64,000 nucleotides of DNA from a virus: IMG/VR virus record IMGVR_UViG_3300028831_000585, positions 1 through 64,000 of that record; one strand, written 5' to 3'. The position numbers and the translations under genes were made by a program. This document shows positions 2,135-11,821 of the stretch, piece after piece; positions within the stretch are counted from its first letter, which is position 1; each line of letters starts with the position of its first letter. The notes beneath the pieces were generated by a model. That model had not been told where the DNA came from. It ran no database searches and saw only the letters and a program-made list of their open reading frames with translations.

Positions 2135-2473
2135 TCAGGCGTCAGCCCTGAACGTCCCCGACGGCCGGGCGGCGCTGAGGGCCTGGCTCCGCACCCGGCG
2201 AGCCGTGTCGGCCAGGGCCAGCATCGCCTGCGACGCGCGGTTGAGCGCGCCGGCCGCGTCGTTCATCTCGCCGATGATCTGCTTGGCCAGCCGGGCTGCA
2301 TCGCCCGCGTCCAGCCGTTCCCGGAGCGCGTACTCCAGGCTGCCCTCCAGCTCGGTCGCCACCCGCGCCCAGTTGGTCGCCCCCGCGGACAGCGTCTCGT
2401 GCCCGGCGTTGGTCTCGCTGATCAATTCCAGCATGCCGTTCGGCGGCAGCACGCCGGTGAGTCCGTTGCTCAT
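2135..2473 (-). CDS. Hypothetical helical 112-aa protein
   Basis: Track ORF with a protein-like composition. Confidence 0.6.
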   Translation of the reverse strand: MSNGLTGVLPPNGMLELISETNAGHETLSAGATNWARVATELEGSLEYALRERLDAGDAARLAKQIIGEMNDAAGALNRASQAMLALADTARRVRSQALSAARPSGTFRADA

Positions 2474-2491
2474 TTCTCCCCGATTCCCGCG

Positions 2492-2842
2492 TCAGATCTT
2501 GAAGCTGGTCGTGAGCCCGGCGGCCCGCTCATCCACGTGCTTTCCGTGCGTATTCCGGTGCATCTGGTCGGCGGAAGTCACCAGTTTCAGGAGCTCCGTC
2601 TCCAGCGCGTCGGACATGGCCGCCAGCCGCTCGAGGCGGCGCCGCAACTGGTCCGCAAAGTCGTCGGCCTCGGCGATGCCCACACCGGACGTGGCCCGCA
2701 AAGCGAGCCGCACACTGTCGGCCAGCTTGGGGCCGATCCACCTCAGGTTTTCGGTCGCCGCCTGGGCCGCAACCGCATCTGCGGCGGCCGCCTCCCGCAA
2801 CGCCGGGAACGACCGCACAACACCTTGCGTCAGTTCTCGCAC
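2492..2842 (-). CDS. Hypothetical helical 116-aa protein
   Basis: Track ORF with a protein-like composition. Confidence 0.6.
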   Translation of the reverse strand: MRELTQGVVRSFPALREAAAADAVAAQAATENLRWIGPKLADSVRLALRATSGVGIAEADDFADQLRRRLERLAAMSDALETELLKLVTSADQMHRNTHGKHVDERAAGLTTSFKI

Positions 2843-2852
2843 CGCAAACCTC

Positions 2853-3200
2853 CTACTGGTCCAGGTTGAAGCCCGGCCGCCGGGTGTGCGCGGCCCGGCG
2901 GGTGAACAACTGCTCGAAGGTGACGTACGCCTTCGTGTAGGCCTTGCCGGCCGCCAGGTTGAGCGCGGCGGCGTGCACCAGGTGCCGGGTGACCCGCCGG
3001 GCGTTCAGGTGCAGGTCCACCCGGCCCCACTCGATCCGGGTGCCGGTCGCCCGCGGCAGCGACTGGTTCAGCGCCACCGCGATCACCCGGTCGCCGTCGT
3101 GCATGGCCTCGTGGTGGCTGCGCAGCGCCCGCACCATGGCGTAGAACTCACTCGTGTTCTGGGGGGTCACCAGCATCGGGTGACCGTCGGGGCTGGTCAT
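2853..3200 (-). CDS. Hypothetical 115-aa protein downstream of the clt-like repeats
   Basis: Track ORF; SD AGGAGACGGAAACC upstream of the ATG. Confidence 0.65.
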   Translation of the reverse strand: MTSPDGHPMLVTPQNTSEFYAMVRALRSHHEAMHDGDRVIAVALNQSLPRATGTRIEWGRVDLHLNARRVTRHLVHAAALNLAAGKAYTKAYVTFEQLFTRRAAHTRRPGFNLDQ

Positions 3201-3232
3201 GGTTTCCGTCTCCTAGATCTACACAGCGTTAC

Positions 3233-3361
3233 CGTCAGGAAGTGTCAGGCCTCGCGTCAGGCCCGGTGTCAGAAGGCGTCAGGTGACCTCCTGACGCGTC
3301 AGGCCCCTATAGACGTCCGGAGCGCTGACGCGGCGCCGCGTCAGGCGTCAAAGGTCTGACG
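3233..3361. repeat. clt-like array of about 10 copies of the 7-8-mer (G)CGTCAGG (7 direct, 3 inverted)
   Basis: Copies at about 3233, 3243, 3255, 3267, 3277, 3290(inv), 3297, 3324(inv), 3339, 3346 and 3355(inv), in the 180-bp gap just 3' of the TraB-like gene. Confidence 0.7.
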
Positions 3362-3378
3362 CTTGACACGGCGGGTGA

Positions 3379-9953: not shown

Positions 9954-9959
9954 AGCGCT

Positions 9960-10232
9960 ATGACGACGAACCGCATCGGCCGCATCATCTGGACCCGTAC
10001 GAGCGGCACCACCCGCCAGCACCAGTCGACCGGGGTGGAGATCGTGGCCGTCCCCGCCCAGCGCGTGAACGGCTTCGTCGTCGGCCGCCGCTGGGAGGTC
10101 CGGCACGGGGGCAAGACCCGCTGGACCTGCACCAGCGCCAAGGAGGCGCAGCGTCGCGGTGATGACACCGTGGCCGACCTGATCAAGCCGAAGGCCGAGA
10201 CGGCCACGGACTGGTTCCTCGCGGGAGTCTGA
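9960..10232 (+). CDS. Hypothetical 90-aa protein (MTTNRIGRII...)
   Basis: In-frame ATG of track ORF 9906-10232 at the predicted transcription start. Confidence 0.6.
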   Translation: MTTNRIGRIIWTRTSGTTRQHQSTGVEIVAVPAQRVNGFVVGRRWEVRHGGKTRWTCTSAKEAQRRGDDTVADLIKPKAETATDWFLAGV

Positions 10233-10255
10233 CCCGCCGGAGATCGGAGAGAAGC

Positions 10256-10624
10256 ATGGCAAAGATCGTCAAGACCGTCCGCGTGGTCGGCGACCGCTGC
10301 TCGGTCGTGATCGTCGAGCAGGAGGATGGATCCGCCGAGCTCACGACCATCTGCGGGACGGCCGAGCACGCGCCGAGCGTCAGCGTCGCCACCGACCGTG
10401 CCGCGCGGCACGTCGACGACCCTGAGCACCCGCAGCAGCAGGCGAAGGGGGTCCGCTACTTCGCCCACTACGTCGCCGACAACGGCCGCGCGCAAGGCAA
10501 CACCGAGGTTGTGATGCGGCTGCCGGTCAGAGGGATGGCCGACGTGAAGGCGATGGCCGAGGCGATCCGTCGTCAAGGCGTGCACGACCCGCTGATCACC
10601 AACTGGCAGCGGTTCGAGCAGTAG
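10256..10624 (+). CDS. Hypothetical 122-aa protein
   Basis: Track ORF; SD GGAGAGAAGC. Confidence 0.65.
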   Translation: MAKIVKTVRVVGDRCSVVIVEQEDGSAELTTICGTAEHAPSVSVATDRAARHVDDPEHPQQQAKGVRYFAHYVADNGRAQGNTEVVMRLPVRGMADVKAMAEAIRRQGVHDPLITNWQRFEQ

Positions 10625-10635
10625 GCCACGCAAGC

Positions 10636-10668
10636 AGAAGCCCCGCACCGGTCTGGTGCGGGGCTTCT
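10636..10668. terminator. Bidirectional terminator between convergent genes
   Basis: AGAAGCCCCGCACC-GGTCT-GGTGCGGGGCTTCT. Confidence 0.7.
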
Positions 10669-10681
10669 TCGTGCTGCGGGG

Positions 10682-11821
10682 TCAGGCAGGCTGGTGGCCG
10701 TTCTGGCTGACTGTCTCCGCGAGGTCGGCGGCCGCCTTGCGACCGGCCGCGCCGTAGGTCTGCGACGTACGCTCACCCAGCGGCGGGTCGTAGAGCGCCG
10801 CGAGCTCGGCATTGCTGATCGGCTGACCGGAGAGGGCCTTGGCCTTCACCAGATCGATCGCGTCCTGCTTCAGGGCGGTGCCCCGCATCGTCCGGCCCGC
10901 GCGGGTGTGCACGCCCTGGACCCGGTCGCTGCCGGACGGCACCGGCCGTTGCGGGCGCTCGGCCGGGGGCTGCTTCTCCTCCACCCGGCGCTGCTCGGCC
11001 GGCGGCGCTGGCGGGGTCTCCTGCGGGAGCTCCGTCCCCGCCATCACGGCGGCAGCTCGCGACAGCCGGGCGGCGATCGCCGTCAGATCGCCGTCGGTGG
11101 CGTCGGTGGCCAGCCGGGCCCGGCGCACCTTGGTCCGGCTGAGCGTTGCCAGCCAGCGCGGCGCGTACCGCTCCCGGAAGGCCAGCCGGACCATGCTGTC
11201 GCGCAGCCGGTCCCGGTTGATCTCCCGCTCGTCGCGGCGCCCGGCCTCGATGATGCCCAGGGCAAGGGCCAGCCGCCGGGGCGTCCATCGGATGGTGGTC
11301 GGCCGGCGCTCGGCCGGGTCGTCGTCGGCGGTCAGCGACCGGTACCAGATCAGCGCCACCACCAGCGGCACCGAGAGGCGCAGCGGCGCCTGCGTCCAGC
11401 CCTCGCCGATGGCGACCACCAGCGCCATCACGCAGGCCAGCGTCCAGACGGTGGTCACCCAGGGCCGTCGCCGGACCAGGTCGCGCCGGTAGAACTCGGC
11501 CTCCATCATCGACCCGACCATGAACGCCTCGAACATGGTGAACAGCACCGAGGCCAGGATGACCGGCACGTTGTAGGTGTGCACCGCGGTGTCCCACATG
11601 CCCTGAGCCGACCAGCCCAGCCCGATCAGGGTGCCCAGCATGATGACCACCCGGCTGGGCCGGGGCGACCGCCGGACACGGATGTAGAGCACCAGCAGCG
11701 CGGCGCCCGCGGCGACGGCCACCCAGCTCGCGGCCGGCACCAGGCCGAGCAGGCGCAGGCCCTCGCCGACGACGGCTCGCACGATCGCCTCAGCAGTGTC
11801 AGTGTCCACGGTTACGATCAA
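10682..11821 (-). CDS. Multi-pass membrane protein (DUF2637/Spd-like N-terminus) with a Pro-rich linker and C-terminal soluble domain
   Basis: 379 aa; 5-6 hydrophobic helices in the N-terminal half. Confidence 0.65.
   Translation of the reverse strand: MIVTVDTDTAEAIVRAVVGEGLRLLGLVPAASWVAVAAGAALLVLYIRVRRSPRPSRVVIMLGTLIGLGWSAQGMWDTAVHTYNVPVILASVLFTMFEAFMVGSMMEAEFYRRDLVRRRPWVTTVWTLACVMALVVAIGEGWTQAPLRLSVPLVVALIWYRSLTADDDPAERRPTTIRWTPRRLALALGIIEAGRRDEREINRDRLRDSMVRLAFRERYAPRWLATLSRTKVRRARLATDATDGDLTAIAARLSRAAAVMAGTELPQETPPAPPAEQRRVEEKQPPAERPQRPVPSGSDRVQGVHTRAGRTMRGTALKQDAIDLVKAKALSGQPISNAELAALYDPPLGERTSQTYGAAGRKAAADLAETVSQNGHQPA

Follow-up and report, generated by a model that had tools for sequence, protein, structure and literature searches.

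The 64,000-nt stretch of viral DNA analyzed here (the window, positions 1 to 64,000 of IMG/VR record IMGVR_UViG_3300028831_000585) carries, among the genes of a tailed phage, a gene for a homologue of TraB, the DNA translocase of Streptomyces-type conjugation, and an adjacent array of short repeats that resembles the clt site of conjugative plasmids. The GC content is ~70% and uniform throughout, and the genes were called across the window on the basis of GC3 (the GC content at third codon positions). A leftward arm extends from the window start to 15281 and contains traB (3379–5682, minus strand) and the array (3201–3378, minus strand); a rightward arm begins at 15436 and continues to the right end of the window. 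The genome appears to be that of a tailed phage of roughly 68 kb with a high-GC actinomycete, presumably mycelial, as the host. An earlier note on this DNA had spoken of a complete siphovirus genome. The window is ~94% of a source contig of 68,190 nt, and the tail genes leave it at the right end, so that it is not a complete genome.

The TraB homologue and the clt-like array

The gene at 3379–5682 encodes a protein of 767 residues that is predicted to be a TraB-like, membrane-anchored translocase of double-stranded DNA (dsDNA). It is composed of N-terminal transmembrane helices, a motor of the FtsK fold, an acidic linker, and a putative C-terminal winged-helix-like domain. Hydropathy peaks were found at residues 27–45, 59–87, and 103–121, and the AlphaFold2 model (predicted local distance difference test, pLDDT, of 80) has four N-terminal hydrophobic helices at 21–50, 67–91, 97–120, and 124–150. 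The Walker A motif is GMTRTGKT, and G297, G302, K303, E417, and D419, the residues of Walker A and B, do not vary among 45 homologues. The best structural matches to the model in Foldseek were the FtsK motors 2iut and 6t8g (E = 1e-14, template-modeling scores of 0.6–0.68). The modeled secondary structure at residues 677–764 is H-E-H-H-E-E (H, helix; E, strand), with a pLDDT of 65–87.

The NCBIfam profile for plasmid_TraB (NF041214) matches this protein with an E-value of 9.6e-88 and 295 bits over profile positions 21–618 of 639. The score is below the equivalog cut-off of 800 bits, as for a homologue from a separate clade rather than an equivalog. The TraB proteins of 50 actinomycete plasmids were matched by tblastn at 25–35% identity, and BLASTP against TraB from pSN22 gave 31% identity over 418 residues, with a weak colinear segment (E = 0.45) toward the C-terminus. 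The Pfam family FtsK_SpoIIIE (PF01580) was not matched even at E ≤ 10, and a PDB sequence profile reached FtsK only marginally (E = 0.96); the kinship with FtsK is visible at the level of the fold alone. The phage family phrog_24831, of unknown function, was matched at 7.7e-45 and the generic phage FtsK-like family phrog_1358 only at 1e-5. From the matches to NF041214, to plasmid TraB, and to the FtsK fold, together with the sub-equivalog score and the poor match to phrog_1358, we assign the predicted product to a TraB clade of its own. The earlier note had called it an FtsK/SpoIIIE protein with N-terminal transmembrane helices; the helices were borne out, the fold of the motor is FtsK-like, and the TraB family takes the place of the Pfam FtsK_SpoIIIE label. 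The note had named a grouping with nonconjugative phage FtsK homologues as a refuting outcome, and by the two profile comparisons the protein groups instead with TraB.

The array fills the gap of 178 bp that separates traB from the gene after it (3201–3378, minus strand). The sequence CTGAC[AG] occurs there ten times, compared with 0.1 expected, and nine of the ten copies fit CTGACRC. Read on the traB strand, inverted copies are followed by a CTATAGGGG element and then by six direct YCTGACRC/G repeats that are 10–12 bp apart, a spacing of about one helical turn. The same layout and motif were found 3′ of traB in every family member read, with a Poisson probability of ≤1e-8 for each one where it was computed. 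In pWTY27, the clt is made up of four 7-bp repeats, TGACACC, which are footprinted by the Tra protein of that plasmid and are required for transfer (PMC3583192), and the core of the array, TGACAC, is identical to bases 1–6 of that repeat (PMC3583192). As positive controls, pJV1 and pSN22 showed their published nine-fold CCGCACA[C/G][C/G] clt at the matching position (PMC3583192). CTGACA repeats are also found 3′ of traB in pCQ3. In three of four more distant TraB-bearing proviruses (L025, L027, and L028) the repeat 3′ of traB is CGTGCGAA-like and the architecture is kept; no array was seen in the fourth, L024. Each TraB recognizes its own clt by the 8-bp repeats there (PMC4447253), and the shift of the motif with the TraB clade fits such cognate pairs of TraB and repeat (PMC4447253). 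A clt is made of direct repeats of 7–9 bp that adjoin traB, and this is what was found at 3201–3378. The proposal in the earlier note that the array is of the kind bound by TraB proteins is thus upheld, and the array is well supported as a putative clt.

Outside the array, CTGACRC occurs 15 times in the window, compared with ~33 expected from shuffled sequences. The depletion may reflect selection against stray TraB sites or the constraint on in-frame TGA in coding DNA. A genome-wide role of this motif like that of the FtsK-orienting polar sequences (KOPS) was rejected; the motif is neither enriched outside the array nor skewed.

Promoters and conservation of the module

The traB operon is headed by a promoter of a class that recurs in both arms. 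A palindrome, TGCAAC-N4-GTTGCG, is followed after 11–14 nt by GGGGGTACA (GGGGGTACAgT); a −35 element, TTGCGC or TTGCAT, lies within the palindrome and is separated by a 17-nt spacer from TGGGGGTACAGT. The promoters are often arranged as back-to-back pairs ~50 bp apart, are often leaderless, and form a lineage-specific class. In the window, GGGGGTAC was counted 14 times, compared with 1.7 expected. The earlier note had named six places for this unusual architecture, and it was confirmed at all of them. The leftward arm contains back-to-back pairs at 1360–1422 and 9567–9629 (both strands), the promoter/operator of the operon whose last gene is traB at 8812–8852 (minus strand, promoter at 8815), and the promoter of a leaderless rightward cassette at 9915–9953 (plus strand). 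The early rightward promoter at 15335–15411 (plus strand, promoter at 15401) has a matching box and operator half-sites, and a further member of the class lies inside the rightward arm at 40462–40499 (plus strand, unit at 40489). The class heads the traB operon and further leftward units, the early operon of the rightward arm, and the unit at 40489. A generic sigma-70 promoter scan of the leftward arm returned nothing.

Equivalent promoters were found 5′ of traB in the relatives L001, L002, and L007. The palindrome of L001 is altered in a compensatory manner, to TGCAAG/CTTGCG, which suggests a coevolving dimeric regulator. The gene beside the operator cluster (14973–15281, minus strand) encodes a protein of 102 residues that has no Pfam match and is conserved in L002, L007, L016–L021, and L029. 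From its position, this protein is a candidate for the regulator of the shared promoters.

Approximately 109 full-length homologues of the window TraB were found at 32–75% identity, almost all of them metagenomic and many on contigs of 64–70 kb. A profile search of the full representative library identified 750 TraB-family proteins, ~20 of which belong to this clade. A scan of IMG/VR with the single TraB sequence returned nothing, and a profile scan gave matches. The gene contexts were read for roughly 15 relatives out of >100 homologues, and these share the position and the order of the module at 31–81% TraB identity. An early divergent region is followed by genes for the 102-residue protein, a 270-residue protein, a 379-residue membrane protein, a 239-residue protein, and an HTH_17 protein; then come traB, the array, usually a gene for a 115-residue protein, and convergent lysis and tail genes. 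One relative (L029/L030, IMGVR_UViG_3300046715_000149, 66,492 nt) has identical ends of 127 nt that close it to a circle of 66.4 kb. The assembly breakpoint lies inside traB, and closing the circle restores an intact traB open reading frame (ORF).

The earlier note had argued for one coregulated element rather than two neighbors. The synteny in ~15 relatives, the common promoter class, and the circular closure that restores traB support this view, and neither an integrase, among the proteins scanned, nor an att site was found. The traB module is thus supported as a part of the phage, without a tandem insertion.

Outside the metagenomic lineage the clade is rare. None of 50,697 phage records was matched in tblastn searches with the window TraB, even at E ≤ 1, or with the distant TraB of L028. 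No member of the clade was found among 72,556 PLSDB plasmids, and 185,579 GTDB species genomes contained one divergent copy. That copy (L004) is from Rhizomonospora bruguierae NBRC 107566 (NZ_BBQH01000056.1), the sole species-representative genome with this TraB clade. Its context resembles that of the integrative and conjugative elements of actinomycetes (AICEs), with the frameshifted C-terminus of an integrase, GntR and XRE genes, an HTH_17-like gene, a 455-residue homologue of the membrane protein, traB, the array, and a TraA-like gene. The integrase remnant adjoins what was read by eye as a tRNA-like 3′ end, where ARAGORN calls no tRNA. This locus may resemble the source of the module found in the phages.

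Neighboring genes and the phage arms

The operon that ends in traB contains six further genes at 5857–8767 (minus strand, GC3 calls). These include a gene for a ProQ_C-like protein (6898–7338, minus strand, PF24203) and a gene for the 239-residue protein (6182–6901, minus strand), which has C-terminal transmembrane helices and is conserved in the relatives. Directly 5′ of traB, in the window as in the relatives, lies the gene for an excisionase/MerR-like DNA-binding protein of the HTH_17 family (5666–5860, minus strand, PF12728, E = 2.3e-14), which overlaps the start of traB by 17 nt. The Xis-like helix-turn-helix protein listed in the earlier note is therefore present.

The gene directly after the array (2853–3200, minus strand) encodes a protein of 115 residues and is kept in most relatives of the family. 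The NCBIfam profile for TraA (NF041213) matches it weakly (E = 0.027, 14.5 bits, compared with a cut-off of 80). When a hidden Markov model was made from the family of this protein, three plasmid traA ORFs ranked first, second, and third, and hhalign aligned the family with TraA at P = 0.0015 over 35 columns. The AlphaFold2 model (pLDDT of 49) was too poor for use. These three links to plasmid TraA are concordant and weakly suggest that the protein is TraA-like. Two small genes for proteins of 112 and 108 residues (2135–2818, minus strand) were called from GC3 and have no family matches.

Two membrane proteins were recognized by hydropathy. The 193-residue protein (8915–9496, minus strand) has a phage-type promoter of its own at 9567–9600 and homologues in L002, L005, and L029, and it matches no Pfam family. 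The 379-residue polytopic protein (10682–11821, minus strand) is conserved with traB across the family and co-occurs with traB in more distant TraB-bearing proviruses as well. The earlier note had labeled both of them DUF2637/Spd-like. DUF2637 matches neither protein at E ≤ 5 and matches only 2 of 43 homologues, at E = 0.14; neither protein is similar to the ORFs, including Spd, of pSN22, pJV1, and pCQ3. A protein from L028, used as a positive control, matched DUF2637 at 6.5e-10. Because a true DUF2637 protein is readily detected in this manner, the Spd label is unsupported, and only the presence of membrane proteins near traB is retained from that description.

Two tRNA-like genes lie at 14212–14360 and 14603–14730 (both minus strand), above the Rfam tRNA threshold at 39 and 48 bits, respectively. 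The acceptor, D, and T arms are intact, and branched inserts of 82 and 59 nt replace the anticodon loop. ARAGORN calls no tRNA for either gene, and there is a weak overlap with YrlA (Y RNA-like, E = 0.09). In L002, a close relative, this spot is taken by an ordinary tRNA-Cys. The possibility that these genes are att remnants between two elements was rejected, given the complete cloverleaves with inserts and the relative with a normal tRNA. At the far end of the leftward arm, the gene at 157–636 (minus strand) encodes a secreted, Cys-rich protein of 159 residues with a signal peptide. The homologue in L002 belongs to the Pfam family Inhibitor_I36 (peptidase inhibitor) and sits elsewhere in the arm, which suggests that the gene is a mobile accessory.

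The rightward arm begins with phage recombination and replication genes (15436–44158, plus strand) for the exonucleases YqaJ and RNase_T, an ERF recombinase, a C5 methylase, a beta clamp, a primase/helicase-like protein of the DUF3987 type, and SSB (single-stranded DNA-binding protein). Siphovirus packaging, head, and tail genes follow (44767–64000, plus strand). TerL, the portal, the protease, the major head protein, and the tape measure protein were matched by PHROG families with E-values of 1e-56 to 1e-85, as in a siphovirus-type tailed phage, and this region also encodes tail proteins. TerL shares at most 36% identity with those of isolates, and the major head protein 52% with those of Gordonia phages. 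No phage record was matched when 24 kb of the window was searched by megablast, and there is no close isolated phage among those records; no Streptomyces plasmid has a match to the capsid gene.

Three features of this arm may be added. The protein of the head-maturation-protease type (48604–51138, plus strand) is unusually long (810–844 residues) and matches two protease families. The C5 DNA methylase (21978–23846, plus strand, 622 residues) is matched by Pfam in three separate stretches. At 30023–30234, directly 3′ of the DUF3987 gene, an AT-rich core of ~100 bp in this 70% GC genome has inverted GGGGGTAC triplets on each side, with the promoter box reused there in the absence of the palindrome. 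The region looks like a replication origin, and the boxes that the earlier note had placed beside a putative origin do border it.

Known systems, proposed function, and alternatives

A phage that also transfers by TraB has already been published. The Streptomyces plasmid-phage pZL12 (Zhong et al. 2010, J Bacteriol 192:3747, cited in PMC4487206 and PMC3583192) and the related pSLE1 and pCQ3 bring together, on a single replicon, the structural genes of a tailed phage and a major transfer gene of the TraB type, as does the window, and pCQ3 has CTGACA repeats after traB. The remark in the earlier note that spread by both routes would be unusual is overstated, since pZL12 is a precedent and pCQ3 carries traA-traB together with capsid and terminase genes. 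However, the members of this group are plasmids of 85–90 kb that carry ParA/ParB and come from cultured Streptomyces; integrases are present in pSLE1 as well. Their TraB is of the classical type and is ~34% identical to the window TraB over 300 residues. The phage described here has a genome of ~68 kb, no partition genes were found in it, and the traA-like gene follows traB, whereas theirs precedes it. Of the features of a phage-plasmid, structural and transfer genes on one replicon were found; maintenance genes, among the proteins scanned, and an extrachromosomal replicon in a cultured host were not.

The TraB-clt systems of pSVH1, pJV1, pSN22, and pWTY27 resemble the window in protein architecture and in a clt at the 3′ end of the tra genes that is made of direct repeats of 7–9 bp and inverted repeats (PMC4447253), and the pWTY27 repeat contains the core of the window array. 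The window TraB belongs to a separate clade (32–75% identity inside it, ~35% identity to plasmid TraB over half of the length), and unlike the Streptomyces plasmid systems the module has no GntR-type TraR/KorA partner and no detectable Spd and is placed in a phage context with phage promoters. AICEs share TraB-type transfer and an HTH_17 Xis-like protein, as does the AICE-like copy from Rhizomonospora. In contrast to AICEs, no integrase, att site, or Rep was found in the window among the proteins scanned, and the module is embedded in a phage.

Among phages, SpdB2 homologues have been noted in the actinophages phiC31 and VWB (PMC4447253), and Thoma et al. proposed that phage DNA might be spread by the Spd homologues of actinophages (PMC4447253). 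These phages are cited for Spd-like proteins and not for TraB or clt, whereas the window has TraB and a clt-like array and no detectable Spd/DUF2637 protein. The Streptomyces phages Geonosis, Jaresh, and AndoPrime have genes of the same P-loop translocase family, annotated as FtsK/SpoIIIE-like and of unknown role; the window TraB differs from the FtsK-like genes of isolated phages in the tblastn and phrog_1358 comparisons given above. L024, L025, L027, and L028 are siphovirus-like proviruses of 40–50 kb in IMG/VR, with identifiers that look like those of isolate genomes and TraB proteins of 25–30% identity. L028 has a tyrosine integrase and the true DUF2637 protein, and L025 has a GntR/UTRA regulator. 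As in the window, the membrane protein, traB, and, except in L024, a repeat array are convergent with lysis and tail genes; the size, the TraB identity, and the repeat motif are different. The TraB proteins of these proviruses indicate that phage-borne TraB is broader than the pZL12 type. What is new here is a distinct TraB clade that is fixed in a large, uncultured lineage of ~67-kb phages, the conserved clt-like array of this clade and its control by phage promoters, and a phage TraB alongside which no maintenance or integration genes were found.

The lifestyle of the phage bears on how such a module would be used. Pfam searches identified no integrase (Phage_integrase or Recombinase), ParA/ParB, plasmid Rep, CI-type repressor, or GntR-type kil-kor regulator among the window proteins scanned, a set that does not include the small ORFs of the structural region, and no att site was found. 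The statement in the earlier note that no integrase is visible in 64 kb holds to the same extent. In the relatives, the stretch equivalent to the remaining 4.2 kb of the source contig gave no Pfam matches to integrase, Par, Rep, or repressor families either. The plasmid-prophage lifestyle that the earlier note had considered received no direct support; Par genes and a recognizable repressor were not found, and the lineage is absent from the plasmids and nearly so from the species genomes searched. These absences speak against plasmid-prophages being common in cultured hosts; in uncultured hosts such a state may occur.

That TraB moves phage DNA bearing the putative clt is likely; this core step is common to the reading that we favor and to the plasmid-prophage alternative discussed below. 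We tentatively favor, just short of calling it probable, a working TraB-clt system of the phage that acts on the phage's own dsDNA genome early after infection or induction. The proposal is built on homology, architecture, conservation, and coregulation, from which we infer DNA binding, translocation, and timing. TraB hexamers would be held in the hyphal membrane by the N-terminal helices, and the C-terminal winged-helix domain would read the polar CTGACRC array 3′ of traB. The FtsK-type motor would then pump circular or replicating phage DNA across the septal cross-walls or into a touching hypha, perhaps assisted by the conserved membrane proteins and the TraA-like protein, and neighboring compartments would be seeded with phage DNA with no requirement for virions. 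The activity is placed early because the traB operon has the promoter of the early operon and no kil-kor regulator, integrase, Par, or recognizable repressor was found among the proteins scanned. The more specific proposal, that an integrase-less and probably virulent actinophage lineage uses TraB-clt as a movement system through septa and hyphal contacts, is possible and rather doubtful.

Several points weigh against these proposals. All documented associations of TraB with phages (pZL12, pSLE1, pCQ3, and the provirus L028 with its integrase) are temperate, and the palindromic operator could be the site of a lysogenic repressor. The function of TraB could have diverged, since 295 bits is far under the equivalog cut-off of 800 bits, and no Spd homologue was detected with the DUF2637 profile or with the plasmid Spd ORFs. 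The mycelial lifestyle of the host is itself presumed, and 4.2 kb of the source contig lie outside the data read.

The most serious alternative is a conjugative plasmid-prophage like pZL12, a circular episome that would use TraB-clt for mating and intramycelial spread from a living donor and would produce virions only on induction. The precedents of pZL12 and pCQ3, the lack of a detected integrase, the relative that assembles as a circle, and the distant TraB-bearing proviruses in isolate genomes are all in keeping with it, and the palindromic operators present at every early promoter are reminiscent of control by a global repressor. However, pZL12 and pSLE1 have ParAB, and ParA/ParB, a plasmid Rep, and a CI-type repressor were not found among the proteins scanned here; 72,556 plasmids held no member of the lineage and 185,579 species genomes only the divergent copy in an AICE-like context; and the capsid gene is unrelated to those of the Streptomyces plasmid-phages. 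With traB on an early lytic promoter, a repressor would moreover silence traB in the prophage. We consider this alternative rather unlikely. Motors of the FtsK/SpoIIIE family are known to segregate DNA at septa, and TraB-clt could have been repurposed to bring DNA into prespores (a spore carrier state), to clear or segregate DNA at septa, to mobilize host DNA, or to exclude superinfection. The FtsK-like genes of unknown role in Streptomyces phages, the score far under the TraB cut-off, and the lack of a detected Spd homologue would fit such a role. Repurposing is nevertheless distinctly unlikely: the single-copy array sits exactly as a plasmid clt does and shares its motif core with a proven clt, the TraA-like partner is kept, and the motif is neither enriched nor skewed genome-wide as a KOPS-like guide would be.

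The array could also be merely the operator of the 115-residue gene, bound by the HTH_17 protein or by the 115-residue protein, with TraB having no dedicated clt. One end of the array is 30–40 bp 5′ of the start codon of that gene, and the TraR/KorA regulators of plasmids bind repeats near tra genes too (PMC4447253). Five to nine direct repeats with helical spacing are, however, typical of clt, the repeat that Tra footprints in pWTY27 has a matching core, and the motif tracks the TraB clade also where a different gene lies downstream (L027 and L028), which makes this explanation very improbable. Two neighboring elements, with a fragment of an AICE or plasmid next to or within a prophage, are close to excluded. 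The module has the content of an AICE minus the integrase, tRNA-like sequences are present at 14.2–14.7 kb, and the Rhizomonospora copy is beside an integrase remnant and a GntR gene. Against this, order and position are constant in ~15 relatives at 31–81% TraB identity, phage genes flank the module on both sides, the promoter class is common to both arms, and the GC content is uniform. Furthermore, no integrase or att site was found, the circular closure of the relative passes through traB, and the tRNA-like genes form whole cloverleaves with inserts rather than att fragments.

Since Streptomyces-type conjugation requires no more than a single motor protein and a short site on the DNA, a phage can adopt it easily. 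A lineage of >100 variants with ~67-kb genomes keeps the module under its own phage promoters, every member examined has the putative recognition site, and from this retention the capsid-independent movement of viral DNA has probably been selected in filamentous hosts. The overlap between phages and conjugative elements is thereby extended past pZL12, the single studied case. The traB gene, the ~180-bp putative clt, and the gene for the 115-residue protein make up a cloneable test system for how phages deal with compartmentalized, multicellular bacteria. We infer that the phage may also spread in the absence of capsids, and such phages could move DNA between hyphae without a phage receptor. 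If the TraB-clt system does serve for movement through septa and hyphal contacts, a single adsorption could make virus factories of many compartments in a multicellular host, and the system would be a bacterial counterpart to the movement proteins of plant viruses.

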